Shown here in pieces: positions 35,619-62,963 of a stretch of DNA of 64,000 nt. The stretch is taken from NCBI GenBank assembly GCA_977017645.1, contig OZ360220.1, forward strand, positions 289,602,001-289,666,000, written 5' to 3'. The notes under the pieces were generated by a model. That model ran no database searches. It was not told the origin of the DNA and was given only the letters and a program-made list of their open reading frames with translations. Position 1 is the first letter of the stretch. Every line of letters begins with the position of its first letter. The stretch comes from Torpedo marmorata (Eukaryota). The position numbers were made by a program, and so were the translations under genes.

Positions 35619-35654
<36 letters not shown>

Positions 35655-36341
35655 AGCCCAAACCATTACAGTCTGTGATCAACCGTCATGTAAAAATGGA
35701 AAACCTTCCCCAAAACCCCAGGTCAGTCATAAAAATAATTCAGTCCCAAAAATACAGTCCACAAAAGTCACTCTCTATGTTCAGGGTCCAAATTCAGATC
35801 TGTGTGCTGGCACAAAGGACTTCTTAATGAACATTGGAGAGAGAGAGAGAGAGAGAGAGACACTGACTGTATTAAGCTTATGAATGCTTGGTCTGCTATA
35901 TGCTTCCGATGACTTTCCTTTTGTAGGTGCACGAGGGTTGCTGTTCAAATGAGTGTTCCACTGATGAAGGTGTGTACGTGGATCTCACATCCCGTCTAGC
36001 TGATCTCATGCCTGTTATCCAAGAAAGTTGCTTTAAATCAGTATTTTACTGATAAAGGAGGCCATGTGCTCCACAGCCTTTCTAGCTAGAATGCAAAGCC
36101 TCTGTTTTTGCTGTTCTCTCTCTAGCCATTGCAACTCCACTGACTGCTTTTGCAGAGTTTTGCACCTGCAACAAAGTATATTTTTCACAGCCTGTCTCTC
36201 TCTCTATGTGTGTCTCTCTCTGAGCACAGCCAGCCCTGGGCAAGTTAACTCTTTCAGTACCTGGTCCCAGTGTGTACTCAAAAGACTTCATCCTTCCTGC
36301 TGACCACCCGCAGTCCAAATGGTCAGTCATGGTCCATAACA
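35459..36341 (-). repeat. 3' LTR of Gmr1-B
   Basis: TGTTATGGACC...TAACA on the minus strand. Homologous to 51264-52056 plus 60994-61065. Contains (GT)n and (GA)n tracts. Confidence 0.9.
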
Positions 36342-40711: not shown

Positions 40712-41378
40712 ATTAAATCATATTCTTGCAAAATTAGACTCCAATTTAACAACCGTCGATTCTTATTTTTCATTTTACAGATATACACATCAAAGTGTTG
40801 TAGAGCCAACACAAGAGCTAACAACTCTTTTCTATGGTTGAATAATTCCTTTGATGATCATTGAACTTCTTCGAGAAGTCGGATACCGGATGGTCAATGT
40901 CCTCTTCGTTCTTCCTCTGTAACAGCACCGCACCCACAGCTTCATCGCTGGCATCCACGGCTAAAGAAAATGGCTTTTCTAAATCCGGTGACTTAAGCAC
41001 AGGTTGGTGGCATAAAATGGCTTTCAATTTGACAAATGCTTTCTGACAACCTGTCGACCATACAAATTTTTCTCCCTTTCTAAGCAAATTTGTGAGAGGG
41101 AGCGCAAGATCTGCAAAGTTTTTACAAAAGTTGCGGTAGTAGCCAATCATCTCCAGGAACCTCCTCAGAGTTTTCTTATCAGTTGGAACAGGGAACTCGG
41201 AAATAGTCACAACCTTTGCCTCTACTGGCGCCAACTGCCCCTGACCCACTACATAACCCAGATAAATAACAGTCTCATGTCCAAACTCACTTTTACTTAA
41301 ATTAACTGTGAGATTTGCTTTTGAGTCATTTGAACAATTGTTTTAACTCAAAGACATGCTCTTCCCAGGTGTTACTAC
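40712..41378 (-). pseudogene. Gmr1-B RT C-terminus and RNase H
   Basis: SNTWEEHV...VIYLGYVVGQG, RRFLEMIGYYR, AVDASD, NYSTIEK. Confidence 0.9.
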
Positions 41379-41499
41379 TGTTATGGACCATGACTGACCA
41401 TTTGGACTGCGGACGGTCAGCAGGAAGGATGAATTCTTTTGGAGTATACACTGGGGCCAGGTACTGAAAAAGTTAACTTCCCCAGGACTTGGTGTACCC

Positions 41500-41531
<32 letters not shown>

Positions 41532-42241
41532 TGTGGAATAGATACATTGTTGCACTTTTGCAAAAAGCAGGGGCAGATCTCTGCAAAGCAGACAGTTGTG
41601 AGTTGCAAAGGCTACAGAAAACAGCCAGATTCAGGTTTGTGTGCAGTCAGAGAAAATCTGGCAAAATAGCACATGGCCTCCTGTCTCAGAGAAAAATTCT
41701 GAGAAAAGCAACTTCTGTGGAGAACAGGCGTGAGATCAGCGAGACTAGCTGTGAGATTCAAGCATACGCCTAAATCAGTGGTATACTGATCTGGAACTTG
41801 CAATCCTTATGAACCTACAAGAAGGGGACGTCATCAGAGAAGAAAACAAGTATTTGTAAGCATAATCAGTCATTTGTCTCTCTCCAACGTTCATTCAGAA
41901 GTACTTCTACCAGACCCAGAGGAAAAGTTGAAGCCTGAACTTAGAGAGTAAATTTGTGGACTGTTTATCTTTTTTTTTGACTGACTTGTTGTTTTATGAC
42001 TGACCTGGGGTTTTTGGGGAAAGTTTTTCCATTTTTTCATAAGGGTTGGGCACAGACTGTAATGGTCTGGGCTTTACACACACACACATACACCTTTTAG
42101 ATAAGAATAGAGTTTATAGACGTTTATAGTGGGGTTAATTGTTGTGAAATTATATGTTTACTTGTGTTTAATAAATAATAATTTCAATTTTTACCCCTTT
42201 TGCATTGCGTCTTCTGTCGTTGCTGGTTTGATTCTGTAACA
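41379..42241 (+). repeat. 5' LTR of Gmr1-A (863 bp)
   Basis: TGTTA...TAACA, with AATAAA near 42170. Confidence 0.95.
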
Positions 42242-42244
42242 AAT

Positions 42245-42263
42245 TGGGGGCTCGTTGCGGGAT
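42245..42263 (+). promoter_or_regulatory. Primer binding site, tRNA-Pro-like
   Basis: TGGGGGCTCGTTGCGGGAT versus the canonical TGGGGGCTCGTCCGGGAT. Confidence 0.8.
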
Positions 42264-42374
42264 TTGAATCAAAATCCATCTTGGTAATTGAAGGAATCCC
42301 AGTTTGTTTTAAGGCATTCCTTTTTGGTAAAGCTAATTAAAAGCTAGTGTGTGTGTAACAAAAAACCAGCAACA

Positions 42375-45300
42375 ATGGATGTAGAACATTTTTTGGAATC
42401 ACCTGAACCTGATACTTTAAAAAAGGCGAAAAAGGAACAGTTAGTGGCTATAGCAACAGAGTTGGGCATTGCTTCTGTAAAACCATCTATGAAAAAGGCA
42501 GAGATTGGGAGAAAAATTGTCAAGTACTATATAAAAGAAAAAAAATTGGAGGAGAGCGTGTTAGAGCAGTTTCCCAAGGGTAAACCTTCTGAAAACATAC
42601 AGTTGGAATTAAAGAAATTGGAATTGGAGGCAGCCAGAGAACAAAAGAAATTAGAATTGGACGCAGACAGGGAACAAAAGAACAGGGAATTGGAGGCAGC
42701 CAGAGAAAAAAAGAAATTAGAATTAGAATTGGAATTGGAACGAAGGAAATTAGAATTGGAGGTAACCAGAGAACAGAAGAGATTAGACTTAGAGAACGAG
42801 GAGAAAAATAGGAAATATGAGCTGGAAAAGATGAGGTTGGAAAATGAGAGGAGACAAGAAGAGCGCCAAGATCAAATTCGTCATCCTGCTGAGGGGTTTT
42901 TGGCTAGTAGGGAAGTTAGGTTGGTTCCTCCATTTGAGGAGGCAGAAATAGATAAGTACTTCCAACATTTTGAGAAGGTGGCTGTGAAATTAAAATGGCC
43001 ACAAGACCAATGGTCTCTTATGTTGCAAAGTGTAATAAAAGGAAAAGCCCAGCAAGCTTATTCTACTCTTACCACAGAACAAGCTGCTGATTATGAAACG
43101 GTGAAGAAGGCTATACTCCAGGCTTATGAGTTAGTTCCAGAGGCTTATAGACAGAAGTTTAGAAATCTAAAAAGATCAGCAACCCAATCTTATACAGAGT
43201 TTGCCTATGAAAAAGTTGTGTGTTTTGACAGGTGGTGCACATCTAAGGAAGTAAACAATGATTACAATCAATTGAGAGAATTGATAATAATCGAGGAGGT
43301 AAAAAGGTGTGTTCCTGAGGATATTAAGGTATACTTAGATGAAAAGGAGGTGAAAACTTGGCGAGATTCAGCTAAGTTGGCAGATGGATATGCTTTAACC
43401 CACAAGCCTAAGAGGACGTCAGGTAGAATTTTCCAAAAGGTCACGGTGGATAATCAGAAGCAAGTGGAAAGTAAATTTGGAAGTGGTGTTAAGGAAAGGG
43501 ATGAAGGAAAGTGGAAAAGGGAAAACAATTCAGGTCCCATTTGCCACTACTGTAGAAAGGCTGGTCATATGCTAGCAAGCTGTCCAGTGTTGAAAAAGAA
43601 GAGAGAAAAGGATGCAACACCTAATGCTTGTATTCAGAGTGAGAAGATGCATAACACCCAGGAAGGAGATAAATTTACTGACCAAGTTAAAGATGTATTT
43701 AAACCTTTTGTGACTGATGGTTTTGTTTCAGTTAAGGCAGGATCAAAACAAGTGCCAGTGAAAATCTTGCGAGATACTGGAGCTGCTCAGTCACTTGTGT
43801 TAGATAGTGTCTTGGAATTTTGTGAAGCTACTGACACCGGTGACATAAATTTAATAAAAGGAATTGGTGGTGAAGTTGAGTCCATTCCTTTGCACAAAAT
43901 AGTATTGAACTCAGACTTGGTGGAAGGACCAGTTATAATAGGAGTGAGATCAGAGTTGCCCATAGAAGGAGTCTCACTGTTGTTAGGCAATGACTTGGCC
44001 AAGGGTAAAGTAGTTCCTGCAGTGCGAATGACCACTAAGCCAGTCATTGATAAGTCAGAGAAAGACTCTGATATTTATCCGGCATGTGCCATAACCAGGG
44101 CCATGTCTAAGAAAAATGTCACTGTAGAGAAGGCAGTGGAAAATAACTTAGTGAAAGAAAAAGAAACTGATAATCAAGAAAACCTGGAAAAGATTGAGCA
44201 ATCTCCTATGTTACACCCATCCACTGATAAGACACCTAAAGGCACAGATTTGTCACTATCCCGACAGGAGTTAATAGCAAGGCAAAAAGACGATCCGGAT
44301 CTTGCTGAGGTGAGGGATAAGGTTCTCTCTGAAGAAGAGATTAAAAAGGTGCCAGTAGGGTATTATGGAAAAGATGGGGTGTTGATGAGAAAGTGGAGAC
44401 CACGTGATGTTCCTGCCAATGAAGAATGGGCATTAGTGCAGCAGGTTGTGATCCCTAAAGTATATAGGGATGAAATAATAACTTTGGCTCATAGTACACC
44501 CTTAGGTGGTCATCTTGGGGTGAAGAAAACTATAAGTAAGATAATGAAACAGTTTTATTGGCCCAGTTTGAGAAGGGAGGTTGTAAGCTTTTGCCGGGCC
44601 TGTCACACTTGTCAGGTGGTGGGTAAACCTAATCAGGGTCCCCCGGTGGCACCCTTGCAACCTATCCCTGCGTTTAGTGAGCCTTTCTCGAGAGTAATTG
44701 TGGACTGTGTTGGCCCATTGCCCAAAACCAAAGCGGGGAATGAGTATTTGTTAACAATTATGTGTGCAGCCACCAGATTTCCAGAGGCCATTCCTCTGAG
44801 AAACATAAAAGCAAAGTCAATTGTAAAGGCTATGGTAAAGTTTTTCACCTTGGTAGGTTTGCCAAGGGAAATTCAATCAGATCAGGGCAGTAATTTCATG
44901 TCAGGCGTTTTCCAACAAGTGGTTGATGGACTAGGAGTTAAACAGATTGTATCCTCTGCGTACCATCCAGAAAGTCAAGGGGCTTTGGAGAGGTTCCATT
45001 CGACTTTGAAAACAATGATTAGAACCTATTGTTGTGAGAAGGAAAAGGATTGGGATGAGGGGGTTCATTTGTTGTTATTTGCAGCGAGGGAGTCTGTCCA
45101 AGATTCGCTTGGTTTTAGTCCATTTGAGTTAGTTTTCGGACATGAGGTGAGAGGTCCTTTAAGATTATTAAAAGAACAGTGGATTAATCGTGATGTGCAT
45201 TTAAATCTGTTAGATTATGTTTCCAAATTTAAGGATCGGTTGCATAGGGCTTGTGAGATGGCAAAGGAGAATTTAAAGGCCACTCAACAGAAAATGAAGG

Positions 45301-45641
45301 TTTGGTATGATCGAAAGGCGAAGATGAGAACTTTTAAACCTGGTGAGAACGTATTAGTTCTGTTTCCCATCCATTCAAATCCTCTTAGGGCTAGATTTTT
45401 AGGACCCTATAGAGTTAAGTCAAAAATTAATGAGGTCACCTATGTCATAGAAACACCTCATCGCAGACGAGACACACAGGTCTGTCATGTGAATATGATT
45501 AAGCCATATTTTGAACAGGTGCCTCACAAAGGGACTGAAAATTTACAGAGGTACTGGTTATTGACAGGGGTAAGGAGGAGACAGATAAAACCAGTTTCAG
45601 AGAGGGTCATGGGACTGTTAATTCTTGGAGTTATGTTGTAG
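42375..45641 (+). CDS. Gmr1 Gag-protease-integrase polyprotein (1088 aa from the first ATG)
   Basis: Capsid YFQHFEKVA..WP..W and PEAYRQKFR (SCAN-related); knuckle CHYCRKAGHMLASC; protease LRDTGA; integrase HHCC, DCVG, SDQGSNF, ERFH; GPY. IN before RT defines the Gmr1 group. Confidence 0.93.
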   Translation: MDVEHFLESPEPDTLKKAKKEQLVAIATELGIASVKPSMKKAEIGRKIVKYYIKEKKLEESVLEQFPKGKPSENIQLELKKLELEAAREQKKLELDADREQKNRELEAAREKKKLELELELERRKLELEVTREQKRLDLENEEKNRKYELEKMRLENERRQEERQDQIRHPAEGFLASREVRLVPPFEEAEIDKYFQHFEKVAVKLKWPQDQWSLMLQSVIKGKAQQAYSTLTTEQAADYETVKKAILQAYELVPEAYRQKFRNLKRSATQSYTEFAYEKVVCFDRWCTSKEVNNDYNQLRELIIIEEVKRCVPEDIKVYLDEKEVKTWRDSAKLADGYALTHKPKRTSGRIFQKVTVDNQKQVESKFGSGVKERDEGKWKRENNSGPICHYCRKAGHMLASCPVLKKKREKDATPNACIQSEKMHNTQEGDKFTDQVKDVFKPFVTDGFVSVKAGSKQVPVKILRDTGAAQSLVLDSVLEFCEATDTGDINLIKGIGGEVESIPLHKIVLNSDLVEGPVIIGVRSELPIEGVSLLLGNDLAKGKVVPAVRMTTKPVIDKSEKDSDIYPACAITRAMSKKNVTVEKAVENNLVKEKETDNQENLEKIEQSPMLHPSTDKTPKGTDLSLSRQELIARQKDDPDLAEVRDKVLSEEEIKKVPVGYYGKDGVLMRKWRPRDVPANEEWALVQQVVIPKVYRDEIITLAHSTPLGGHLGVKKTISKIMKQFYWPSLRREVVSFCRACHTCQVVGKPNQGPPVAPLQPIPAFSEPFSRVIVDCVGPLPKTKAGNEYLLTIMCAATRFPEAIPLRNIKAKSIVKAMVKFFTLVGLPREIQSDQGSNFMSGVFQQVVDGLGVKQIVSSAYHPESQGALERFHSTLKTMIRTYCCEKEKDWDEGVHLLLFAARESVQDSLGFSPFELVFGHEVRGPLRLLKEQWINRDVHLNLLDYVSKFKDRLHRACEMAKENLKATQQKMKVWYDRKAKMRTFKPGENVLVLFPIHSNPLRARFLGPYRVKSKINEVTYVIETPHRRRDTQVCHVNMIKPYFEQVPHKGTENLQRYWLLTGVRRRQIKPVSERVMGLLILGVML

Positions 45642-46291
45642 GACAGGGGAAGTTGGCGCCAGTAGAGGCAAAGGTTGTCGCTATTTCCGAGTTCCCTGTT
45701 CCAACTGGTAAGAAAACTCTGAGGAGGTTCCTGGAAATGATTGGCTACTACCGCAAGTTCTGTAAAAACTTTGCTGATCTTGCGCTCCCTCTCACAAATT
45801 TGCTTAGAAAGAAAGAGAAATTTGTATGGTCTACAGGTTGTCAGGAAGCATTTGTCAAATTGAAAGCCATGTTATGCCACCAACCTGTGCTTAAGTCACC
45901 TAATTTAGAACAGTCGTTTTCTTTAGCCGTGGATGCGAGCGATGAAGCTGTGGGTGCGGTGCTGTTACAGAAGAAGAATGAAGAGGACATTGAACATCCG
46001 GTATCCTACTTCTCAAAGAAGTTCAATGATCATCAAAGGAATTATTCAACTATAGAGAAAGAGTTGTTGGCTCTTGTATTGGCTCTACAACATTTTGATG
46101 TGTATATCTGTACAGCTCAAAAACCACTCATAGTGTATACTGACCATAATCCATTGGTTTTTCTTTGTAAAATGAAAAATAAGAATCGACGGTTGTTGAA
46201 TTGGAGTCTAATTTTGCAAGAATATAATTTGGTAATCACTCATATAAAAGGGAGAGATAATGTAATTGCTGATTGTATTTCTAGATGTTAA
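45542..46291 (+). CDS. Open -1 frame: linker, RT thumb/connection and RNase H
   Basis: No stop from 45542 to 46291. RNase H residues in DAS, EKE, TDH and ADC are all present. Confidence 0.8.
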   Translation, partial: FTEVLVIDRGKEETDKTSFREGHGTVNSWSYVVGQGKLAPVEAKVVAISEFPVPTGKKTLRRFLEMIGYYRKFCKNFADLALPLTNLLRKKEKFVWSTGCQEAFVKLKAMLCHQPVLKSPNLEQSFSLAVDASDEAVGAVLLQKKNEEDIEHPVSYFSKKFNDHQRNYSTIEKELLALVLALQHFDVYICTAQKPLIVYTDHNPLVFLCKMKNKNRRLLNWSLILQEYNLVITHIKGRDNVIADCISRC

Positions 46292-46423
46292 ACTTTATTA
46301 ATGAAAAGAGTTCATATTTTGTATTTGTGGATAAACATTGTAGATTTTGTTTATATTCTGACACCTCACTTACTTTCCTAAATTTTGTTCTTGCAGACCA
46401 AAATTTCCTTTGAGGGAGGGAAG

Positions 46424-47285
46424 TGTTATGGACCATGACTGACCATTTGGACTGCGGACGGTCAGCAGGAAGGATGAATTCTTTTGGAGTATACACTGGG
46501 GCCAGGTACTGAAAAAGTTAACTTCCCCAGGACTTGGTGTACCTAGAGAGAGAGAGAGAGACAGACAGACAGACTGTGGAATAGATACATTGTTGCACTT
46601 TTGCAAAAAGCAGGGGCAGATCTCTGCAAAGCAGACAGTTGTGAGTTGCAAAGGCTACAGAAAACAGCCAGATTCAGGTTTGTGTGCAGTCAGAGAAAAT
46701 CTGGCAAAATAGCACATGGCCTCCTGTCTCAGAGAAAAATTCTGAGAAAAGCAACTTCTGTGGAGAACAGGCGTGAGATCAGCGAGACTAGCTGTGAGAT
46801 TCAAGCATACGCCTAAATCAGTGGTATACTGATCTGGAACTTGCAATCCTTATGAACCTACAAGAAGGGGACGTCATCAGAGAAGAAAACAAGTATTTGT
46901 AAGCATAATCAGTCATTTGTCTCTCTCCAACGTTCATTCAGAAGTACTTCTACCAGACCCAGAGGAAAAGTTGAAGCCTGAACTTAGAGAGTAAATTTGT
47001 GGACTGTTTATCTTTTTTTTTTGACTGACTTGTTGTTTTATGACTGACCTGGGGTTTTTGGGGAAAGTTTTTCCATTTTTTCATAAGGGTTGGGCACAGA
47101 CTGTAATGGTCTGGGCTTTACACACACACACATACACCTTTTAGATAAGAATAGAGTTTATAGACGTTTATAGTGGGGTTAATTGTTGTGAAATTATATG
47201 TTTACTTGTGTTTAATAAATAATAATTTCAATTTTTACCCCTTTTGCATTGCGTCTTCTGTCGTTGCTGGTTTGATTCTGTAACA
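46424..47285 (+). repeat. 3' LTR of Gmr1-A (862 bp)
   Basis: Differs from the 5' LTR, by eye, by one substitution, one GA unit and one T. Confidence 0.95.
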
Positions 47286-47289
47286 CTAC

Positions 47290-50200
47290 TTACAATTAAA
47301 TCATCAATCTTCAACCCATGACTTACTGAATTAATCATGCTCTGAAATGTTCCTGGAGCATTCTTCATCCCAAAAGGCATAACATTATAATCATACAGCC
47401 CAAAAGGTGTTACAAATGGAGAAATCTCCCTACCCCTTTTTATCAAAGGAACACACCAGTACCCTTTCAATAAGTCAATTTTAGAAAGAAATTTGGACTT
47501 CCCCCCCCCCCTCATCTATACATTCGTCTATTCTAGGGATAAGAAAAGCATCTGTCTTTGTCACAGCATTTACTTTCCTATAATCAGTGCAAAACCTAAC
47601 TGTTTCATCAGGCTTAGGCACTAAAACACAAGGTGAACTACAATTGGAAGTAGACTTTCGAATGATACTGTTCTTAACATGTAGTCAATTTCCTGATCTA
47701 CCAGTTTTCACTTTTCTGCATTTATCGATATGGATGCTGTTTTATAGGTCTTGCATCTCCTACATCCACATCATGATAAGCTATGGAATTTTTCTGAGGC
47801 ACATCGGGAAATAAATTTATAAATTTTTAAAATAACTGACTCATCTCTTCCTTTTCGGAAGTTTTGAGATGAGCCAACTTTGTCTCCAGATTGCACAAAA
47901 TCATGGAATTTTCTAACCTCGGGCTTATCAATTTCTGTGTCCCATGACCCTCTCTGAAACTGGTTTTATCTGTCTCCTCCTTACCCTGGTCGATAACCAG
48001 CACCTCTGGTAAATGTTCAGTCTCTTTGTGCGGCACCTATTCAAAATATGGCTTAATCATATTCACGTGACAGACCTGTGTGTCTCGTCTGCGATTAGGT
48101 GTTTCTATGACATAAGTGACCTAATTCATTTTAGACTTAACTCTATAGGGTCCTGAAAATCTAGCCCTAAGTGGATTTGAATGTGTGGGAAACAGAACTA
48201 ATACATTCTCACCAGGTTGAAAAGTTCTCATCTTGGCCTTTCGATCATACCAAACCTTCATTCTCTGTTGAGTGGCCTTTAAAGTCTCCTTTGCCATCTC
48301 ACAAGCTTTTTGAAACCGATCCTTAAATTTGGAAACATAATCCAACAGATTTAAATGCACATCACTATTAATTCACTGTTCTTTTAATGACATTAAAGGA
48401 CCTCTCACCTCATGTCCGAAAACTAACTCGAATGGACTAAAACCAAGTGATTCTTGGACAGACTCCCTCGCTGCAAATTACAACAAATGAACCCCATCAT
48501 CCCAATCCTTTTCCTTCTCACAACAATAAGTTCTAATCATGGTTTTCAAAGTCGAATGGAACCTCTCCAAGGCCCCTTGACTTTCTGGATGGTACACAGA
48601 GGATACAATCTGTTTAACTCCCAGTCCATCAACCACTTGTTGAAATACGCCTGACATGAAATTACTACCCTTATCTGATTGAATTTCCCGAGGCACACCT
48701 ACCAAGGTGAAAAACTTTACCATAGCCTTTACAATTGACTTTGCTTTAATGTTTCTCAGAGGAATGGCCTCCGGAAATCTGGTGGCTGCACACATAATTG
48801 TTAACAAATACTCATTCCCCGCTTTGGTTTTGGGCAATGGGCCAACACAGTCCACAATCACTCTCGAGAAAGGCTCACTGAAAGCAGGGATAGGTTGCAA
48901 GGGTGCCACCGGGGGACCCTGATTAGGTTCACCCACCACCTGACAAGTGTGACAGGCCCGGCAAAAGCTTACAACCTCCCTTCTTAAACTGGGCCAATAA
49001 AATTGTTTCATTACCTTATGTATAGTTTTCTTCACCCCAAGGTGACCACCTAAGGGTGTGCTGTGAGCCAAAGTTATTATTGCATCCCTATATACTTTAG
49101 GGATCACAACCTGCTGCACTACTGCCCGTTCTTCATTGGCAGGAACATCACATGGTCTCCACTTTCTCATCAACACCCCATATTTTTCATAATAACCCAC
49201 TGGCACCTTCTTAATCTCCTCTTCAGAGAGAACCTTATCCCTCATCTCAGCAAGATCAGGTTCCTCCTTTTGCCTTGCTATTAGCTCCTGTGGGGATAGT
49301 GACAAATCTGTGTCTTTAGGTGTCTTATTAGTGTATGGGTCTAACACAGGAGATTGCTCAACCTTTTCCAGGTGTTTTTGATTATCACCGACTTTTTCTT
49401 TCAACAATTCATTTTCCACTGCCTTCTCTACAGTGACATTTTTTCTTAGACTTGGCCCTGGTTATGGCACATGCCAGATAAATATCAGAGTCCTTCTCTG
49501 ACTTATCAATGACTGGCTTAGTGGTCATTCGCACTGCAGGAACTACTTTACACTCAGCCAAGTCATTGCCTAGCAACAGTGAGACTCCTTCTACTGGCAA
49601 CTCTGATCTCACTCTTATTATAGCAGGTCCTTCCACCAAGGTGGAGTTCAACACTATTTTGTGCAAAGGAATCACCCCCAATTAATTTAATTAAATTCAT
49701 TTCACCGGTGTCAGTGGCTTCACAAAATTCCAAGACACTATCTAACACAGATGATTGAGCAGCTCCAGTATCTCACAAGATTTTCACTGGAACTTGCTTT
49801 GACCCTGCCTTAACTGAAACAAAACCATCAGTCACAAAAGGTTTAAATGCATCCCTAACTTTGTCAGTAAATGTGTCTCCTTCCTGGGTGTTATGCCTCT
49901 TCTCACTCTGAATACAAGCATTAGGTGTTGCATCCTTTTCTCTCTTCTTTTTCAACACAGGACAGCTTGCTAGCATATGACCAGCCTTCCTACAGTAGTG
50001 GCAAATGGGACCCGAAGGGTTTTCCTTTTTCGACTTCCCTTCATCTCTTCCCTTAACACACTTCCTAATTTACTTTCCACTTGCTTGGGATTATCCATAG
50101 TGCCCTTTTCGAGAATTCTGCCTAACATCCACTTAGGCTTGTGGGTTAAAGCATATTCATCTGCTAATTTAGCTGAATCTTGCTTTTCAACTAAGTAAGC

Positions 50201-51008
50201 CTTAATATCCTCAGGAACACACCTTTTTATCTCCTCAATTAGTATCAATTATCTCAATTGATTGTAATCATTGTTTACCACCTTAGATATACACCACCAT
50301 CAAAACACATAACCTTTTCATAGGCAAACACTGTGTGAGATTGGGTTGCTGATCTTTTTTTTAAATTTCTAAACTTCTGTCTATAAGCCTCTGGAACTAA
50401 CTCATAAACCTGGAGTATAGCCTATTCACCATCTCATAATCAGCAGAATAAGCTTGCTGAGCTTTTCCTTTAATTACACTTTGTAACATAAGAGACCATT
50501 GGTCTTGAAGCCATTTTAATTTCACAGCCACCTTTTCAAAATGCTGGAAGTATTTATCTATTTCATTCTCCTCAAATGGAGGAACCAAGCTAACTTCTCT
50601 ACTGGCCAAAAACCCCTCAAAAGGACCACAAATTTGATTTTGGGGTTACTGTCTCCTCTCATTTTCCAATTTAATCTTTTCCAGCTCATGTTGCCTAATT
50701 TTCTCCTCTAATCTCTTTTGTTCTCTGGCTGCTTCCAAGTCTAATCTCTTTTGTTCCAATTCCAATTTCTTCAATTCCAACAGTGTGTTCTCAGAAGGTT
50801 TACCCTTGGGAAAGTGCTCTAACCTGCTCTCCTCAAACTTTTTTTCTTTTATATAATATTTGGCAATTTTTCTCCCAATCTCTGCCTTTTTCATTGATGG
50901 TTTTACAGAAGCAATGCCCAACTCTGTTGCTATAGCCACTAACTGTTCCTTTTTAGCCTTTTTCAAAGCATCAGGTTCGGGTGATCCCAAAAAAATTTCT
51001 ACATCCAT
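47290..51008 (-). pseudogene. Gmr1-B gag-PR-IN-RT (N-terminal part), with many stops and frameshifts
   Basis: Fragments homologous to the Gmr1-A ORF, plus RT motifs IDLLKGYW, MPFGMKNAPGTFQ and IDD. Confidence 0.92.
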
Positions 51009-51263: not shown

Positions 51264-52056
51264 TGTTTCAAACTCATACCAGCGACGACAGAAGATGCAA
51301 TGCAAAGGGGTTAAAATTTATATTTATTAAAGACAATTCAATATATAACTTCTTAATGATTAACCCCACTATAAATGTCTATAACAACTATTCAGTTATC
51401 AAATACTTATCTAAAGTGTGTGTGTGTGTGTGTGAAAAGCCCAAACCATTACAGTCTGTGCCCAACCCTCATGTGAAAAGGGAAAACCATCCCCAAAACC
51501 CCAGGTCAGTCATAAAAATAAATTAGTCCAAAAAATACAGTCCACAAAATTCACTCTCTATGTTCAGGGTCCAAATTCAGCTCTGTGTGCTGCCATGAAG
51601 GACTTCTTAATGAACGTTGGAGAGAGAGACACTGACTGTTTTAAGCTTACGAATGCTTGGTCTGCTATATGCTTCCGATGACTTTCCTTTTGCAGGTGCA
51701 TGAGGGTTGCTGTTCAAATAAGTGTTCCACTGATGAAGGTGTCCATGTGGATCTCACAGCCCGTCTAGCTGGTCTCACGCCTGTTATCCTCGAAAGTTGC
51801 TTTAAATCAGTATTTTACTGATAAAGGAGACCATGTGCTCTTCTCAACAGCCTTTCTTGCTGGAATGCACAAGCCTCTGTTTTTGCTGTTCTCTCTCCAG
51901 CCATTGCAACTCCACTGAATGCTTTTGCAGAGTTTTGCACCTGCTTTTCCAAAAGTGCAACAAAGTATATTTTTCATAGCCTGTCTCTCTCTCTATGTGT
52001 GTCTCTCTCTGAGCACAGCCAGCCCTGGGCAAGTTAACTCTTTCAGTACCTGGTCC
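51264..52056 (-). repeat. 5' LTR of Gmr1-B, main part; the remainder is at 60994-61065
   Basis: Colinear with 35459-36341 once the ERV is removed (CCTGGTCC|CAGTGTG). Confidence 0.92.
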
Positions 52057-52639
52057 TGAGAAAGTTGACTCTAAAATGGCATCTAAAGTTGCAAAGTATT
52101 GCGAGACATTTGACCAGAGTAACTTACTTATCGTACATAAATACTTTAAGTGTGATTATATTTAACCTTCTGCTTATACAGAGATACTTAACAAACAAAA
52201 CTGGACAGCTCCTTATCTATTCTAAACTGCACTCTGTACCATGGAGCAAATAACGGTCATAAGGATACGAAAGGATAGTAAAAAACAATTCCTTATGAGG
52301 AGTATGTTTAAATAGGTTAAAACTGCTGGACTACAAAATACGTAATCACGAGTTAGAATGAATGGTCTCGAAACTGCTTATCAGATGGAAGTAGCTGCGT
52401 AAGAAAAACAAGTCCACTTATGGTGCAGCTGAACTTTGTTAATGCTAAGAACTAAGAATGGTATTATAACCTCAGATGTGTTGGCATGCTTTGAGTGGGG
52501 GCTCCAGAGCACAGAGCATATGTGCTTATGCGCAGTGTTGTACTCTGGCCACTCCGATCCAGATCAAGTTGATTAAACTGAGTTGTTCTATTGAACTGTT
52601 GTTGTCCGGTTATTCTCTCTTAGGTAACGAACACTTACA
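52057..52639 (+). repeat. ERV 5' LTR
   Basis: TG...CA; TATA-like motif near 52462; ATTAAA at 52572. About 5% divergent from the 3' LTR by eye. Confidence 0.95.
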
Positions 52640-52640
52640 T

Positions 52641-52658
52641 TGGCGTAGTCGGCAGGAT
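52641..52658 (+). promoter_or_regulatory. ERV primer binding site, tRNA-Ser
   Basis: TGGCGTAGTCGGCAGGAT is the complement of the tRNA-Ser 3' end ATCCTGCCGACTACGCCA (recalled sequence). Confidence 0.9.
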
Positions 52659-53081
52659 TTCACTGGGACAGATGCCGGAGACTGAGTAGGAGGCTGCAGG
52701 TTGCCGGGATTGAAAGAGGAGAAAGGTGAGCTCTAGGTGGACCCTTTGAGACCGACCTCCTAAGGAACCTCCCGGGAATACTGTGGTCCCTCATCCGAGG
52801 TAGATCTGATTCCCTGCCGAAACACAGGAAGAGTGAATACCGGTGAGTAAAAGAATATATATATATTCGGGTAGTGAAAAGGGGAAAACTTGTGGTGCTG
52901 GGGAAGTTGCAGGCAAGAGGCTTGCCAGTGAAAAATCGCAAGCAGTAAGATTTGTTGCTCAGTAAATTAGGATAGGGTCCATCTCTGACACCTTGCCCTA
53001 GAATAGTTGTTAAGAGAGGAAATCCTCCACGCGAAGGTCGGGAACCTGAAGTAGGTGCAAAGGAGATGGACTGAGGGGCTA

Positions 53082-54647
53082 ATGGGAAATAGCCTGGATA
53101 AAAGTGACGGGGGAGAACCCATACAGATAATGTGTTATTTGAAACCTCAATATAATAAAGACTATCGAACCTTAAGTTATTGGTTAACCAAGAGATTAGG
53201 AAACGAGGCCTGACCCATTGGAGGAACATGGAATGTTGAGACAATAAAGAAAGCAATGGATGCGAGGAGTAGGATTTGGGTGAATAATGCATGTAAAAAG
53301 GGTATAGAGATACATGATAAGGAAGGAAAACTCAAAGAATGGAAGGTTCTGGAGGCAGAATGTAAGTGGATAGAGGAGAAGGAAAAGCTTGAGAAAGAAA
53401 GTAATGGTACCAGTAAAGAAAATCTGAGGAAACAGCTAGTTAACAAAAAACGCTAGGAAAAACCACAGACAAGTTCAGCCTCCGGAGACCCCATGTTTGG
53501 CATAACGACCCTAACAATCAGTGATAATGAGAAAGAAGAGGACGATGGATTCCGGGGAAGACCCCCTCCATATGCACCAGTCCAGGCTAACGTAGGACCC
53601 CTATCAGGAGCACAGGGAAAATCATTACATCCTAATATCAGCAATGATGGAGAAGGAGATCTATCACCCTTCCCTAGCATGACTCCTGCCGAGGAGGTAA
53701 AAATACATCCCCGACCACTACACCAGCCTGACAGACTGCAGATGTTCCCACTTAGAACTGTGCCCAACCCTCAGGCAGGCCAAGGGAACCAACCTCTTAA
53801 TGTAGAAATATATTCCCCATAGAAACCCCAGGAATTATGTTTGATTAGAGATAAAGCCCCAAATAAGACTGCGTCGCCTGACGCATTTGTCGATTATTTA
53901 CGATCTACAGTGGAATATTACAGTGCCAATGATCGAGATTTGTGGGGTCTGACAATATCACTATTGACGGTAGCAGAAAAGACTAAATGGAAAAATGCTA
54001 TGAACCTTTAAACTTGGGAGGCAGTCAAAAACATCCCGGCACACAGAGAAGATGTTGGAATTCCCCCCTGTATAAACTTTATGATGGAACATTTAACTAA
54101 TTGTTTAAAACAGCCCATCAATATGTCTAAAGTGATTGATTGTAAGCCAGCTCCACGGGAAGATCCACAGACCTATTTGTCGAAACGTATAAAACCCATG
54201 CCGGAGATAGTGCTTTTAACCGGGGGGGGGGGTGTAATTCGGCACCATTCAATTCGATTCTTATGAGTTGTCTACCCTACAAGCAACAAACAATGATAAA
54301 AACTAATCTGAATTGGGCTGAAAATGACTTGAATCAGATGAGATGCGCTGTGGTTACATTTTGGCCAGAAGCATCCGGAAAGGGACCTGGAGTAGCAGGA
54401 GGAATGGGGATAGGAATTAAAAATGAATATGTGTTGAGAGAAGATGATTTAGCACCTGAGAGGAGGTCCTGGTCGCTCTTTTGGAAACACCGGCCAAAGG
54501 TAGTGGGACTGGAATAAGAATAGGAATAATTGATGTTTCCGATGTGGGAGAGAGGGACATTGGATGAGGGATTGTCTGGCAAGAAGGGGACCGGGACCAG
54601 AAGCACGAAGAACCCCATACTCTGACCATAATCCCTTTCGCCAGTGA
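53082..54647 (+). pseudogene. gag: ERV gag
   Basis: MGNS start, PPPY late domain, QMFPLR capsid start, and CFRCGREGHWMRDC knuckle at 54534-54575. Several stops and frameshifts. Confidence 0.88.
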
Positions 54648-57600
54648 CTCACCTCAGAGTCCCAATGGCATCTCTTTCCCTTGCTGTCTAACACAGATGA
54701 GGAGCCCACTGTAGTAATGAAGTTGGAGGGATTCCGGATTCCATTTATGATTGACACAGGGGTAACAATGTCAACCCTGCGAAATGAGGTTGTGGAACAC
54801 CTACGGATCCCTCTTTCAGGAGAGAAGACTCGACTTTCTGGAATTGATGGCAAGACTAAGGTATACACCTTAACCTATCCGCTGACAGTGGAATTTGAAA
54901 GGAACATGTACACCTTGACCTTTTCCATTACTGCAGGTCTTGATTGTAATATAGCTGGGAGAGACATGCTGATGGGGCTGGGAATTAACATTGAGTGTTC
55001 GGACCAGGGGCTATCTATATACCACCCACGAGCACTGGTTATAAAATTTCCACCACCACAATGGTGGGCGGTTGATTTAATGCCTGCTCCTGAACTAAAG
55101 GGATTGCCCAATCCCCATGTAACCCTGTATTGTGATGCCACTGGTTGCAACGAAGAAATGACTGAATATTTTGAATCCCTCCTTACTAAGCCAGTAATGG
55201 TAACTATCATCGGAGACGTAGCCGGAGATCCAGGAACAGCATTAGTCGCCAGACTGCCGGACGGATTGTGGAAGTTAGATTCGGACCTAACCAGCCCTCA
55301 TGTTACGACCTCCGTAAGTGCTGGACATACACCAAAAGAATTAAGCCATTTGGTCTACACCTTGTTAAATCAGGCTCGACCTAACGACTTTGGAGAGCAA
55401 CACCTTTCGGCTGGAACACTTCGGTTTTGGAAGACACCATGCCTCCTAAATGGGGAGGAATGACATCATCGAGCGGGGAGACCAGAAGACCACGACAACA
55501 AGGGACACTTGTGGTCGGTATCACCTTATGAGGTGGGACTAACTACTTGCGACCCGATCAACATTAAGACACAAGAAGGTGTCACGCTCCCGTCAGTCCC
55601 ACAGTATCCATTGCAAGAGGAAGCAAAGAAAGGAGTAAGAGCACTGATTTATTCGTTGTGACATCAAGGAATTCTGAAGGAATGCCAGTCGCCATGTAAC
55701 ACTCCTATATTTCCAGTGCCTAAAGCAGGACGAACTGAGTGGCGCCTGGTCCAAGATCTACGAGCCATAAACAAGGTGGTAGAACCTGTGCATGCTATTG
55801 TTCCCAATCCTGCAACCATCCTCAGCCAGATTCCTGCGACAGCTATGATTTTCACTGTAGTCGACTTTCAGCATGCTTTCTTTTCGGTTCCCTTACATCC
55901 TGACTGTGAATACCTCTTTTCTTTCACCTATGATAAACGACAATACACCTGGACAAGGCTGCCACAGGACTTTGTGCACTCGCCTACCATTTTTTCACAG
56001 GCTCTAGCGAAACAATTAAGTACATTGACCCTGCCCCGTGAATCCACGATTGAACAGTACGTAGATGACCTTCTACTTGCTAGCAAGACCACCGACGACA
56101 ATATAGCCGATACGGATGTCTTGCTTGAAGCATTACACCAATGGGGCTATGTAATCCCCAAGAGGAAAGTAACCCAGGCACAGCGGGAAGTTAAGTTTCT
56201 GGGAATACGGTTGAGTGCCAAGGAACAGACTCTCACTGAAGATCGTCTACGTCCGATACTGCATCACCCAGCACCTACCACCCCGAAACAGATGCATGCC
56301 TTCCTAGGATTGATCAACTTCTGCTGGCAGGGGATTCCGGACGTGGCAGTATATACCAAGCACCTGTCACCCTACTCCTCAGCAAATGCTCCTCAGACTT
56401 TTGTACTCACTCAGGAAGAATTGAAGATGTTTGTAGAATTAAAAAGGGCTCTTTCCTCAACACCGGTTATAGGGAGGCCCTTGTATGACCGGCCGTTCCA
56501 ACTGTATGTCACAATAATCCAAGACTGTGCATCTGCAGTTCTCACCCAGAAACATGGGGATGTCCGAAGGCCGGTGGCTTACCACTCAGTCCGGTTGGAT
56601 CCGGTTGCACGTGGCTACCCACCTATGCAGCTGTCACTGCAGCATCTAACATTACTCTCCATCATCCTGTGACTGTGTATACAACTCATTGTGTTACAGT
56701 TCTGATGAATTCTGACTTGACCAAATACACGACTATGGCTCGGTTCGGAAGGTATGAAGTAAGCCTTTTATACAATCCTAATTTGACCTTTCAACACTGT
56801 TCTACGATTAACCCCTCTTCCTTCCTCTAATGCCCGCCGGAAGGACTTGTGGATCCACCGCATGATTGTATCCAAGAAAACTCCACTTTAACTAGGGTAA
56901 GGGAAGATCTATTAGATACCCTCCTGCCTGAGCCATGCTCTACATGGTTTGTTGATGGTGTTGCAGGACACAGGGAGAAGAGCTTCCAGATATGTCATGG
57001 TTTGCCAGGACGGAACACTGGTTGAAGATGGAAGATTTGAGAGTTCTCTTTCAGCCCAGCAAACGGAACTCTATGCTTTGACCCGTGCCTGTATTCTAGG
57101 TAAAGACAAGGATGTAAATCTTTATACTGATTCCCGTTATGTTTTCGGAGTTGCCCATGACTTTGGGGCACTATGGCAACACCGAGGGTTTCTGACGTCT
57201 GCAGGGACCCCAATCAAAAATGCCTCCTATGTTATGAATTTGCTGAAGGCCCACACTAGGGGAAACGATGCTGTATCCCAAGGGAATGTGGCAGCGGACA
57301 GAGCGGCTAAGAAAGCTGCAAGCCAGTCCTCGCATTTAGTTCCAACTGAGGGGCAGATCCTGATCAATAGAACGGTTATGCCAAACATGGAAATAACGTT
57401 AAGTAAACAGAGGGACGCCTCTGCCAACGAAATTGATCTATGGAAACAAGAGGGTTGCACCCAAGACTCTCAGACAGGTCTGTGGCTTACCCCCCCCTTG
57501 GACAAGTATGTATACCCGATTCCCTGCTACCCATTATTTTGAATTATTTACATACCCTCACGCATGCTAGAAAGGAGGGAATGATAAGAATGATTGGGGA

Positions 57601-58545
57601 AACATGGTGGCATCCTAAGGTACGGCAAGAGGCACTGCGAGTGGCCTCAGAATGTAAAATTTGCAAAAGAATAAATCCCGGAAAAGCAGTAAAAGGATCT
57701 ACAGGAAATACACCTATGCCATCATGCCCATTTGAATGTATCCAAATTGATTACATAGCAATGCCCAGGGCTCAGTGCTATAAATATTGTTTAGTAATCT
57801 TGGATTTATTTAGCAGATGGATTGAGGCTCTGCCGACCACCAACAACACAGCTGAAACCACGGTAACCCTACTATTAAAGGAAGTAATACCAATATTTGG
57901 GTTACCAACAACTATAAGTTCGGATAATGGCCCATATTTTGTTGCAGTAATAAATAAGGAACTATGTGACTATTTTAAAATAAAGCAACAGTTCCACTGC
58001 GTACATCATCCCCAAGCTGCAGGTGTGGTGGAAAGAGCCAATGGAGTATTGAAAAATGAGGTGACTAAGTTGATAAGGGAAACAGGCAATCATGGATTAA
58101 GGTACTGCCTCTCGCCCTGTTTGAAATGAGGGTCACTCCTCATGGCACCACCAGAATCTCCCCTGCTGAAGTACTTCATGGAAGACCACTGAGGACTCCC
58201 TGGGGAGCAGAGAAAAACGGGCTAGGAACATTGGACTTACATGCACTCAGTGATGAATTAATCACCTATGTGAAGCAACTAACTCATACTTTGTCAGTAT
58301 TGCACTCACAGGTAAAGGATTCGCAGAGACCTTGTGATGAACCGGAGAGAGACAAAGGGCATCTTCTGCAACCAGGCGACTATGTGTTAATCCGAAATTG
58401 GGACAAAAAGAGACTGGGAGATCGGTGGAACGGACCGTTCCAAGTACGACTCACCACCCCGACAGCAGTAAAGGTTGAAGGCAATTCACGGTGGATACAC
58501 GTTACAGACTGTAAGAGGATCGGTGGAAGACACCAACCCACATGA
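54648..58545 (+). pseudogene. pol: ERV pol: protease, 2H-like domain, RT, RNase H, integrase
   Basis: IDTG; SPCNTPIFPVPK, WRLVQDLRAIN, YTWTRLPQ, QYVDDLLL; WFVDG, SAQQTEL, YTDSRY; HHCC, QIDYI, SDNG, VERAN; WNGPF. Confidence 0.95.
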
Positions 58546-58758
58546 TGAAGGGAACACTTGCCTACTATGGACTTGCATGCTCAATTCTATCATTAACCTT
58601 TGCTCTACAACATAACTTGTTTTATCAAACGCATAACCTTTTATATGGTAATCGCACGGTATGTTACCCATTAGCCAGGTCAGTAAGAACGTTGTTTGCA
58701 GCATCCCCTGTTAGTTATCCCTTTGAAACACTGGTCAAGGGAAGTAATAATAGTCATT

Positions 58759-59063
58759 ATTCACCTGTCCTTCCTGTTTTTTTCCACCCACCCAGCCATC
58801 CCTCCTCCCCCTCTTTGCTGCTGTCCCCTCCCTCCTTTCTCCACCTATCATCTCCTGCCTTTCCCACCCCCCTTCCCCCCTCACTCCTTTGTTCGGACGT
58901 CTGCCGGCATTTTCTCATACTTTGATGAAGGGCTCAAGCCCGAAACGTCGGTTATGTATTTCTACCTTTGCTACATAAAAGACACTGTTTGACCTGCTGA
59001 GTTCTCCAGCTTTTGTGTTTTTTACTTCAACCACGGTGTCTACAGATTTTCATGTTTACTTTT
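58759..59063 (+). mobile_element. Penelope 3' fragment in env
   Basis: Reverse complement of 462-730. 14-bp TSD TAATAATAGTCATT at 58745-58758 and 59064-59077. Confidence 0.92.
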
Positions 59064-60047
59064 TAATAATAGTCATTGCCAAGGTACTGACGGTACCTTC
59101 TTGGTGGGAGGAAGGGGCCACTGTTGGTCTATACGACCACCCTGGCACACGGAAAAAAATAATACATGTCAATTGGGGTACCATTTTAAGGAATATTACC
59201 CTACTCCAATACCCGACGCACCCACCACCAAGAAAATAAGAAATGCCAATTTGAGCACGATAAAGGGACTAGCTATCTATCCCCTTTGCCACGATGGGAC
59301 TGGTTGGGCCTGTGTGCTTGTGAACGTTACCCAAAATTACACCTGCGTGGAACAGCATTGCACAGGAGGCTATGGCTGTGGTCTTCGGGGCAGTGTCTTC
59401 ACCTGCCAGTGCCTAAAATGGCAATGCTTAAATCTAGCTTCCGGGTTGCAGATGGTATGTGGGCAGAGTAACAGGACCCACCTGACCAGGGGAAACCTAA
59501 CCTTCTCCGATCCCTCCTGGACCTTTTATTATAAGTATAATAGGGACCACCAGCCAACTTCCTACAATAATACCTGCTACCGGATGAAGAAGGGATAGGT
59601 TTTCCTTTTTAATGGAACCTTTACAACAGCCACGAGACGACTACCTACCTATTTTGCAATTGGTGTGCTTGGTCCTATTACTGTTCCTTGTCCTAATAAG
59701 GCCTGGGCTAATCAACGTATCGTTGCCAGGTCTGCTAGTAAAGAATTTTGTGAGGACTGGAAAAACCCCAAAACCTTGGGATCACCAGTAGGCTATGGGA
59801 TCTTAAGTTCAATAACCCTTGGTGGAACTGCCAGCGTTATATCTACTAAAAAAATCGTAATTACCTTATCTGCGGCCTGACGCTTCTCGGAAACGAGATA
59901 ACTGCCACCATAGATGATATTAACAAAGAGCTCTCCGAACTCTGTTTGTATGCCCAGCAAAATCGATATGCCCTTGATTACCTCCTTGTTCAACAGGGAG
60001 AAGACGGTGTTTGCACCATTATTGGAGACAAATGTATTACCAATATA

Positions 60048-60127
60048 TTACACTGTTTGACCTGCTGAGTTCTCCAGCTTTTGTGTTTTTTACTCTAACC
60101 ACGGTGTCTACAGATTTTCGTGTTTAC
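60048..60127 (+). mobile_element. 80-bp Penelope 3' fragment in env
   Basis: Matches 58983-59060. 11-bp TSD TTACCAATATA at 60037-60047 and 60128-60138. Confidence 0.9.
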
Positions 60128-60378
60128 TTACCAATATAAGGGATCATTCATATAATATTTCTGAGCATATTGACCATATTAGGACATATGTTGATAGTCT
60201 CTGTGAAGGCCCACAAGTATGGTGGCCTTTCAACTGGCTGGGAAACCTATGGGGAAAGATGGTGCATTATGGGACTATCTTATTGCTTATTATTATTATC
60301 TTGCTTCTGCTTCGCTGTGTGGTACCAATCTTCAGAAGTCTGTGTGATATGAGGAAACTGTAGTTATCATATAATGAT

Positions 60379-60391
60379 AAAAGGGGGGGAA
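60379..60391 (+). promoter_or_regulatory. ERV polypurine tract
   Basis: AAAAGGGGGGGAA immediately before the 3' LTR. Confidence 0.92.
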
Positions 60392-60989
60392 TGAGAAAGT
60401 TGACTCTAAAATGGCATCTAAAGTTGCAAAGCATTGCGAGACGTTTGACCAGAGTAACTTACTTATAGTACATAAATACTTTAAGTGTGATTAGATTTAA
60501 CCTTCTGCTTATACAGAGATACTTAACAAAAACTAGACAGCTCGTTATCTATTCTAAACTGCACTCTGTACCATGGAGCAAATAACGGTCATAAGGATAT
60601 GAAAGGATAGTAAAAAAAAACTCCTTATGAGGAGTATGTTTAAATTGGTTCAAACTGCTAGACTACAAAATACGTAATCACGAGTTAAAATGAATGGTCT
60701 CGAAACTGTTTATCAGATGGAAGTAAAAAGATGTAAGAAAAACAAGTCCACTTATGGTGCAGCTGAACTTTGTTACTGACTAATGTATTTAAGTGCTAAG
60801 AACTAAGAATGGTATAAAAACCTCAGATGTGTAGGCATACTTTGAGTGGGGGCTCCAGAGCACGGAGCATATGTGCTTTTGCTCAGTGTTGTACTCTGGC
60901 CACTCCGATCGGATCAAGTTGATTAAACCGAGTTGTTCTATTGAACTGTTGTTGTCCAGTTATTCTCTCTTAGGTAACGAACTTTTACA
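60392..60989 (+). repeat. ERV 3' LTR
   Basis: Direct repeat of 52057-52639; TATAAAA near 60813. Confidence 0.95.
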
Positions 60990-62963
60990 GTCCCAGTGTG
61001 CACTCAAGACTTCATCCTTCCTGCTGACCGTCCGCAGTCCAAATTGTCAGTCATGGTCCATAACAGTTGTGTACAGTATTTTTTGGCACTATCAATAAGT
61101 GGTAATTCTGCCTCGCCTGCAGGAAAAAGAATCTCAGGTTTGTATGTACTCTGAAAATAAATCTGAACTTTGCTTCCCAGTGCATAGTCCCTATTGGATA
61201 TTAATTACATCTTTATCTTTCAATTCATATGACAACCAGCATTCGAGCAGTGTGTGAGAGTTAATCTCATTTGGGCATTTGGGCTCTGTCGTCACATCAC
61301 ATGCAGTTGCTGGCTGAAATTCTTGTTATATATCCGAAGCATTAGTTCCTGATCAAAACCTCAATGCACGAAATAAATTTTAATGTATTTACAACACATT
61401 AAATATATGATTACGTTTCTGGGCCCCTATTTGCCATTTACTTAAATTTCAGGAAATTCCCATGTTATATCTTTAACAGATTCAGTTGGTTGAATGTTCA
61501 TGCAATTTATTTTCCATAAATTGAAATAAATGTTATTGTTTAATTTTACTCTAATTAATAGAATAAAAATGCCTTCATCTGGACATAAAATATCAGAAAG
61601 CTGTGGTCACTTAAAAATGGATGCCTGTTTTATTGTTCTATTGCAAGGAAAGTTGTTTACCATTTAAAATGCCCTGTTCTGCTAATCTGCAAGTATTGTT
61701 ATCATCTCAGGGGACTTTCCTTGTAAATTATTGAAACATGAAAGGATTTTTTTCCCCATTTTCATAAGACAAATGGAGGATGAATTTGGTTACCAGTTAC
61801 TTACATTTCTTTGTTGTGGGTATGGAGCAGCTGCTTGTAGTTATTGGAATAGAACACAGCTGATCTAAGTTCTATGGAAAGTGAGGCACATACTGTTTTA
61901 TAAGGTCATATGCAACCCAATGATACTTCAAGATGCAGAATTGCTTTTAAGATATTATACAATTCCTATTGGCATCTGTGAAGGAATGTAACCAATAAAA
62001 ATGTTCACAGACTTAGTCTGAAACTTACCCTCAATGGCAGAAAAGCAATTATATGTTTGTTTGCTTCTTGTTAAATTATCAGAAATGTAATTACCCCCCC
62101 CCCCCCCACTGAAAGGTTCACTTTAATTTCCATGAAAGTTTTACTGCTTTATAGATAAAAACTCAATTGGCATAACATATTTCTTGACATTAATAAAAAG
62201 ATTAAATTATAGTTTCAAGTATTCGGGGAGTGACCTTACCCTATTCACCTGCATATCAACAACTAAAATAAATTAGAAGGCTACTTATTGTCCCTGGAGT
62301 CATTGGGAATGACGATTGCTGACTTTATCCTGTCTCATTTAGCTGGATGCATGTAAACCTGCCTAAAGCCAACAGGTCATATTTTACATTTGTACAGCTA
62401 GTACTAATGATGTTATCAGTTTTGATTGTAATCGAATGCATGACTAGATTTTCAAAATTCACATTCTTTATGAGAAGCAGAACCGTTCACTGAAGCTCAT
62501 ATGCCAATCCCCTGGAGCAATGTAAGCAAGAAACTGGCATATTTTGGAACTTGTAATCTTCCATTTAATTTGCCCACAGTTCTTGCCAGCATCATCTTTT
62601 TGCCAGCAAGAATTTCCAAGCCTTGATAATCAAACCTTTCAATATTTTTGCTTCAAAAACCTATAACAGAAGCACAAAAAAAGAAAATAAAAAATCTGTG
62701 TTATCATGTTTTTTTTAATGAGAAAACACATTAATTACAGCAGAGAAATGAAGTGAAATATCACAAATATCAAAGACAATTAAAATGTGAATGTGTTAAA
62801 CTCTTAAAATGGTAGTGTGACGCGCTGCAGGAAATAGCGAAGGAAAATGTCAAATGTTACATTTAAGTGGTCTTAAGTTTGTTTGCACTAAGTTGGATGG
62901 TCTAAAGCAAATAAGTTCATATTATTGGCGTATCAGGATTTGACAAGTTGACAATTAAAGGTA

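Follow-up and report, generated by a model that had tools for sequence, protein, structure and literature searches.

A decayed class I provirus

The window, the whole 64,000-nucleotide stretch of Torpedo marmorata DNA that was analysed, carries a provirus at positions 52057-60989, in which gag, pro, RT, RNase H, IN and env follow one another between paired LTRs. The 5′ LTR (52057..52639, + strand) has TG...CA ends, the 3′ LTR lies at 60392..60989 (+), and a 4-bp target-site duplication flanks the element (52053..52056 (+) on the left, 60990-60993 on the right). The LTRs share 90.9% identity over 604 columns, with 28 mismatches and 27 gap positions; at about 5% mismatch, the element can be dated in relative terms only. 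The primer binding site (52641..52658, +) is complementary to the 3′ end of tRNA-Ser(AGA). The PBS-complementary stretch is the 3′ end of the ARAGORN tRNA-Ser(aga) genes at 4/4 loci scanned in the same genome, and it has six genome matches versus none for a reversed control. The polypurine tract is located at 60379..60391 (+).

The gag remnant (53214..54517, +) consists of several broken frames and is placed by position only, a Pfam scan of five pieces of the region having given zero matches. It is followed by a retroviral protease frame (54648..55463, +; PF00077, E 3e-6; PF13650, E 4e-7); between protease and RT, in the protease frame, about 130 codons at 55060-55460 look like an insert and have no Pfam match. 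The class I reverse transcriptase piece with its YVDD motif (55662..56672, +; PF00078, E 9e-27) finds its best PDB matches in MLV-type RT (252 bits), ahead of foamy-type (about 120) and HIV RT (about 61). It is 41-43% identical to RTs of gammaretrovirus type and 41% identical to one of fish type, in a comparison with no identified epsilonretrovirus RT, and it lacks an insertion that is present in the MLV-type rows. An RNase H piece (56916..57542, +; PF00075, E 6e-14) and an integrase in two broken frames with an MLV-type C-terminal domain (57437..58545, +; PF00665, PF17921, PF18697) complete pol. The paired LTRs, target-site duplication, PBS, PPT and gamma/epsilon-type RT, with gag assigned by position, identify the element as a class I ERV.

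The env gene opens with a signal peptide and SU (58542..59720, +), which are interrupted by an insert and frame changes; the SU is collinear with two natural copies, L048 and L049, at 91-97%. A repeat of about 310 bp is inserted in the SU (58752..59063, ends approximate, no strand assigned), and a relative of this repeat sits inverted at 459-725 of the window. The 80-bp insert in the TM that the initial annotation had removed was confirmed at about 60048-60127 (60048..60127, no strand assigned), where it is accompanied by a short flanking duplication. It is 96% identical to 58982-59061, the end of the larger insert, and thus env was hit twice by one repeat family. Stops, frame changes and the two inserts break pol and env, so the window copy is dead and encodes no working Env or Pol. 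There is no sign of a host role for it.

A direct repeat of about 750 bp (35512-36267 and 51311-52056; 93-99% identity) ends exactly at the left junction of the provirus, which suggests that the ERV inserted into or beside the LTR of another element. Two more large LTR-retrotransposon-like elements in opposite orientation, with long arms 92-94% alike, occupy approximately 40828-50860; on the minus strand, frames resembling protease and integrase lie at about 48100-50100, and by eye the elements look Gypsy-like. A tandem array of units of about 18 bp is found at 19173-19570.

The transmembrane subunit and its family

The TM carries a predicted Cys-bounded internal fusion loop (59749..59873, +). 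Both of its cysteine codons (59749-59751 and 59871-59873) were confirmed, as was the frame change that the initial annotation had placed in the A7 run at 59848-59854, which breaks the loop in the window copy. The TM core (59850..60047, +) comprises the second loop Cys, HR1, an ISD-like motif and CX6C-I. Beyond the 80-bp insert, HR2 with an N-glycan sequon, a Trp-rich membrane-proximal stretch, the membrane anchor and a short tail extend over 60128..60363 (+).

The unbroken piece 59850-60047 (66 aa) had Sudan/Ebola GP2 as its top match among 177,635 PDB sequences (33 bits, E 4e-7), against 19 bits for MLV p15 and 18 bits for syncytin-1. It is identical to Zaire GP2 at 25/64 positions. In Pfam, the TM piece matched TLV_coat (E 1.6e-6; 27.6 bits, over the cut-off of 22.5), while Ebola-like_HR1-HR2 (E 2e-4) stayed under its cut-off. 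With an ISD-like motif followed by a cysteine loop and membership of the TLV_coat family, the TM agrees with the broad definition of gamma-type Env.

A filovirus glycoprotein fragment endogenised or captured inside a retroelement might also place filovirus GP2 at the top of a PDB search, and the filovirus GP cluster reached 0.93 in the ESM Atlas, at rank 11. This reverse route is already largely refuted and we regard it as extremely improbable: TLV_coat outscores the Ebola-like family, retroviral env makes up the best-ranked Atlas clusters, and the gene occupies the env position of an LTR provirus. Furthermore, the family is diverse across chondrichthyans and falls outside the filovirus clade with 98-100 support (52- and 28-row trees), and this ectodomain is missing from fish filoviruses according to the part of PMC11521997 available to us.

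In the 6.2-Gb genome, 1270 TM candidates were found; all 150 that were scored had E<1e-17, and there are therefore at least 150 related TM copies. Motifs were counted in the best 30 of these copies, read as they lie. Both loop cysteines are in frame, with no stop and 39 residues between them, in 22/30, and LICGL is present in 22/30; its conservation in sister copies, set beforehand as a test of the initial reading, was thus borne out. The HR1 sequon is kept in 28/30, as NET in 27/30; the window copy has NEI instead and has lost the sequon. CX6C occurs in 29/30 and a third Cys in 0/30. The more divergent lineages within the genome have the same design, with both loop cysteines in 7/7 such rows listed, and named homologs that retain the loop cysteines occur in Heterodontus (horn shark), Pristiophorus (sawshark), Leucoraja (skate), Hemiscyllium (epaulette shark) and Mobula (manta), which makes a cartilaginous fish the probable host. 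Searches of viral contigs with the TM profile, and likewise with the RT piece, yielded no related loci.

The third Cys is also missing in all 11 shark rows of a 28-row alignment, and the family thus lacks the strict gamma-type trait, CX6CC with a covalent SU–TM link. Since this cysteine forms the SU–TM bond in gamma-type Env (bioRxiv 10.1101/2021.11.23.469661, accessible text), its absence indicates that SU and TM were probably joined without the usual disulfide, which suggests non-covalent association or a different bond. The family does hold an ASLV-type trait, a Cys-flanked internal fusion peptide about nine residues past the cleavage site (22/30). The SU/TM junction at 59716-59733 and in sister copies reads R-I-V-A-R, which is not a canonical furin motif, and therefore another protease may have cleaved the Env of this family. 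The related shark envs P0007, P0009, P0011 and P0023 carry basic R-x-K/R-R sites.

By analogy with class I fusogens of the ASLV/filovirus type, the ancestral Env would have been cleaved just upstream of the loop (PMC3758190; 10.1101/2023.10.07.561363). The two loop cysteines would pair in a disulfide that closes the loop, the hydrophobic Gly-rich loop would enter the target membrane, and HR1 would trimerise, with HR2 folding back to give a six-helix bundle. An AlphaFold model of full-length Env had a pLDDT of 43, under 50 over residues 269-434, so its TM part is unusable; a Foldseek search with it returned nothing at E<=0.001.

Resemblance to filovirus glycoproteins

Against PDB chains of filovirus GP2 that span HR1-HR2, a sister TM scored 41-64 bits, versus 36 bits for reptarenavirus GP2, 20 for ASLV and 14-30 for syncytins and MLV; the TM of ASLV itself reached at most 35 bits against the filovirus chains. 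A natural sister copy is identical to Zaire GP2 at 33/80 positions; with the 25/64 of the window piece, this is consistent with the roughly 30 identities in 79 counted by eye in the initial annotation. Raw identity by itself does not set Ebola apart, because an ordinary loop-less catshark env scores 34/80 with the same sister copy. Sudan, Marburg and Lloviu viruses read LVCGL, LVCRL and IVCQL, respectively, so the exact LICGL match that had been reported stands for some ebolaviruses and not for these three.

The loop compares differently. The fusion loop had been described as filovirus-like, and a Cys-bounded loop is indeed conserved in the family; in contrast, its sequence cannot be aligned with the filovirus loop. 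Local alignments to filovirus GP2 start at the second loop Cys or a few residues before it and leave the loop interior unaligned. The loop is 39-43 residues long in shark rows versus 44 in filoviruses, with 22% identity (27% for lizard rows). Two loop resemblances were observed in passing: the shark-type env P0009 and reptarenavirus GP2 (L056) have nearly identical loop centres (G-W-G-[LI]-A-G-F-F-T-L-G), though their HR1-HR2 regions are distant, and the loop of P0271, an ASLV-like env, opens with the six residues that also open the Ebola loop (C-N-P-N-L-H), by chance or shared ancestry.

From 304 proteins, 21 without a usable TM core were dropped, and 253 rows remained after removal of duplicate filovirus, construct and short rows; thinning at 80% identity left 181, and two smaller sets, of 52 and of 28 rows, were selected manually. 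When 243 rows were ranked over 80 HR1-HR2 columns by mean identity to 8 filovirus rows, ranks 1-11 were all shark-type, ASLV stood at 92 and an MLV-type row at 231; the row set had been assembled from 150 of the 1229 hits to the shark profile and from follow-up searches. Reptarenaviruses are represented in it by one row, and none of its envs was identified as tarsier, Varanus, percomORF or epsilonretrovirus. The ranking supports a closer resemblance of the family to filovirus GP2 than is seen for the TMs of ASLV, MLV-type or HTLV-type viruses. The median identity to filoviruses was 0.377 for 24 shark-type rows versus 0.291 for 219 others; the margin is small, the best loop-less anamniote env reaching 0.378.

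Loop-less catshark and fish envs at 34-38% identity to filovirus GP2 would be expected if the resemblance were mostly ancestral sequence retained by slow anamniote envs in an old, unresolved radiation, with no special link between sharks and filoviruses. Besides ASLV, alpharetrovirus-like envs of bats have Cys-flanked fusion peptides, and related elements are known from saurians and amphibians (PMC13568524), which also fits such a radiation, as do the deep forks, which are unsettled in every tree (filovirus+ASLV in 55-403/1000 bootstraps). On the other hand, the top 11 ranks are all shark-type, and the same broad group of these retroelements and filoviruses was found independently with a posterior of 0.89 (PMC11521997, legend of supplementary figure 4). 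The similarity of the SU links the family specifically to Mab-Env2 of the lizard Mabuya: a shark SU profile scored 33.8 bits with the Mab-Env2 SU, compared with a maximum of 6.5 in 880 shuffles. On balance, we regard the old radiation as an improbable explanation, in our estimate about one chance in five.

Other comparisons of SU and whole Env were as follows. The same SU profile gave -1.7 bits for Tapajos SU, and filovirus GP1 also went unscored. Over whole proteins, a sawshark Env aligns to Mab-Env2 over 422 columns, and Mab-Env2 aligns to Tapajos GP over 434. The family Env scored 87 bits with Tapajos, over 202 aa, but 65 bits with Zaire GP, over 129 aa. A candidate match of the SU C-terminus with GP1 residues about 153-187 (36 columns, 33%) was rejected as not significant, since its score of 21.4 lay below the highest value from 40 column shuffles (21.6). 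Filo_glycop, the Pfam family of GP1 sequence, was not matched in the window env or the homologs scanned. The SU model (pLDDT 76) had filovirus GP1 as its top Foldseek PDB rows at E 0.1-0.3, with nothing at E<=0.001 in PDB or BFVD; the PDB rows contained no ASLV SU, and the ranking of GP1 over other retroviral SU is thus not a fair test.

Relationship to Tapajos virus, lizard and Ebola-type envelopes

FastTree placed the shark, filovirus, Tapajos, Mab-Env2 and reptarenavirus rows together with about three others in the 181-row set (SH 90, unstarred). IQ-TREE grouped the shark family with Tapajos and Mab-Env2 at 86/60 (52 rows x 105 columns, mixture model) and 93/93 (28 loop-bearing rows x 140 columns), and across four settings this group appeared in 633-926 of 1000 bootstraps; none of the deep branches is starred in any tree and the preference was formed post hoc. 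The 52-row tree also joined filoviruses with the reptarenavirus (89/57). A single loop-bearing clade was not recovered, because the ASLV and lizard rows stay apart from the other loop-bearing rows in that tree. Likewise, no clade of shark and ASLV TM was recovered in the 181-, 52- or 28-row trees, with an AU test that did not reject this pairing (p 0.083).

A rival reading, proposed in PMC11521997 and in broader terms in the initial annotation, makes the chondrichthyan lineage the direct sister of ebolavirus, marburgvirus, cuevavirus and dianlovirus GP2. This placement has a published posterior of 0.83, and AU tests did not reject it (p 0.46 with 52 rows, p 0.098 with 28). Moreover, shark-type rows are the closest in identity to these viruses, the N-x-N-x-[LI]-[IV]-C-G-L stretch ahead of HR1 and the NET sequon are common to both, and the best structural matches of the predicted SU fold are filovirus GP1 cores. 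In contrast, only 8-186 of 1000 bootstraps in the four settings returned it. The loops differ in sequence and length, these filoviruses keep the third Cys that the shark family lacks, and the SU–GP1 sequence match is not above shuffles. We therefore judge a direct sister relationship to be rather unlikely. The further proposal that the lineage lies near the source of filovirus and reptarenavirus GP2 was not borne out, as the trees prefer Tapajos GP and Mab-Env2 and the pairing of sharks with the reptarenavirus was marginally rejected (p 0.047, one row).

Our preferred reading is a relationship to Tapajos GP and Mab-Env2. Both have, like the shark family, a Cys-bounded loop (of 37 residues in these two), no third Cys, an Env of about 460-470 aa and alignable SU ends. 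They differ in having CX7C versus CX6C and in sharing about 24-32% identity with the family, and Mab-Env2 is without the HR1 sequon. The third Cys is absent from the lizard rows as well, and is kept in ebola/marburg, ASLV and reptarenavirus. The grouping of Tapajos with the other filoviruses was rejected (AU, p 0.009), which agrees with its published independent capture (PMC11521997, accessible part). The nearest filovirus relative of the family is likely the snake virus Tapajos (Tapjovirus) rather than Ebola, and we find it somewhat probable that Tapajos GP and Mab-Env2 are the nearest relatives overall, with ebola/marburg GP2 more distant in the same loop-bearing group.

The GP2s of Ebola, Sudan, Marburg, Mengla and Lloviu viruses share with the family the two loop cysteines, the HR1 and HR2 sequons and an ISD-like N-R-x-A-[IL]-D-[FY]-L-L. 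Filovirus GP2s are 36-41% identical to the sister copy over 80 HR1-HR2 columns, and the SU fold of the family is predicted to resemble the GP1 core. They differ in keeping CX6CC, in the glycan cap and mucin extension of GP1, and in a loop unrelated by local alignment; in Marburg and Mengla viruses, moreover, cleavage takes place far upstream of it. ASLV Env shares the position of the Cys-flanked fusion peptide, about nine residues past the cleavage site, and the HR1 sequon (PMC3758190, in the part available), but has a 35-residue loop, CX6CC, 21-23/80 identical positions and, in alpharetroviruses, a class II pol.

A link between shark and filovirus envelopes has been in print since 2024, on weak support (Nino Barreat and Katzourakis, PMC11521997, of which a part was available). 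This paper describes 14 chondrichthyan loci in Amblyraja, Scyliorhinus, Chiloscyllium, Rhincodon and Leucoraja, for most of which the best viral match is the GP of a filovirus (or of CAS virus). Tapajos groups there with lizard elements only (posterior 1.0), and three captures are proposed. The family studied here agrees with the description of these loci, its best viral match being filovirus GP in a retroelement env position, and a Leucoraja erinacea protein, P0007, falls inside our clade. The loci and the window family are likely the same family, although the motifs of the family are absent from the supplements that were searched. In its accessible parts the paper covers the HR1-HR2 ectodomain without the loop, the missing Cys or SU, and its sister grouping differs from ours.

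The supposition that such a match on an epsilon-like pol might be undescribed has been overtaken by this paper and by Chen et al. (bioRxiv 10.1101/2021.11.23.469661), who, in the text available, report gamma-type env on epsilon-related pol in anamniotes, six cartilaginous fish being surveyed, with CXnC subtypes and three new fusion peptides. Compared by text description, these classes share with the window element the gamma-type env, a class I pol (epsilon-related in those classes, perhaps also here), a CXnC subtype and novel fusion peptides, but no sister link to filoviruses is drawn there. PMC9967133, as far as consulted, reviews GP2 as a homolog of gamma-type Env. In 2013, when birds were the sole hosts in which a Cys-flanked fusion peptide was known, an avian source of the Ebola-type spike was suggested for that reason (PMC3758190). 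The accessible portion of a 2026 preprint on chondrichthyan Env mentions neither filoviruses nor the fusion peptide nor CX6C. The literature searched, mostly excluding subscription papers, contained no description of the shark loop, the missing cysteine or the link between shark, Mab-Env2 and Tapajos. With moderate confidence, we consider the recognition of the loop and of the absent third cysteine as traits of the family, the SU kinship with Mab-Env2, the Tapajos-favouring tree and the GP1-like SU fold to be new here.

Our analysis makes it quite probable that the window TM belongs to a decayed, multi-copy class I ERV env of gamma type, with a Cys-bounded likely fusion loop, and that it likely falls in the group of retroviral envelopes that supplied filoviruses with their glycoproteins. 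A more tentative picture, to which we give slightly less than an even chance, is that the shark family is sister to Mab-Env2 and the whole Tapajos glycoprotein and not to Ebola GP2, that its SU has a GP1 core, that at least two whole-env captures were made from the loop-bearing group, and that shark genomes preserve hundreds of fossil copies from the donor group that can be dated.

How the Ebola-type spike arose from a retroviral envelope has long been asked. The many copies of this family, its several sub-lineages and its foldable SU could firm up or revise the published tree. A loop-type envelope is present in cartilaginous fish, and the comparison points to capture of a whole env, not of the ectodomain only.
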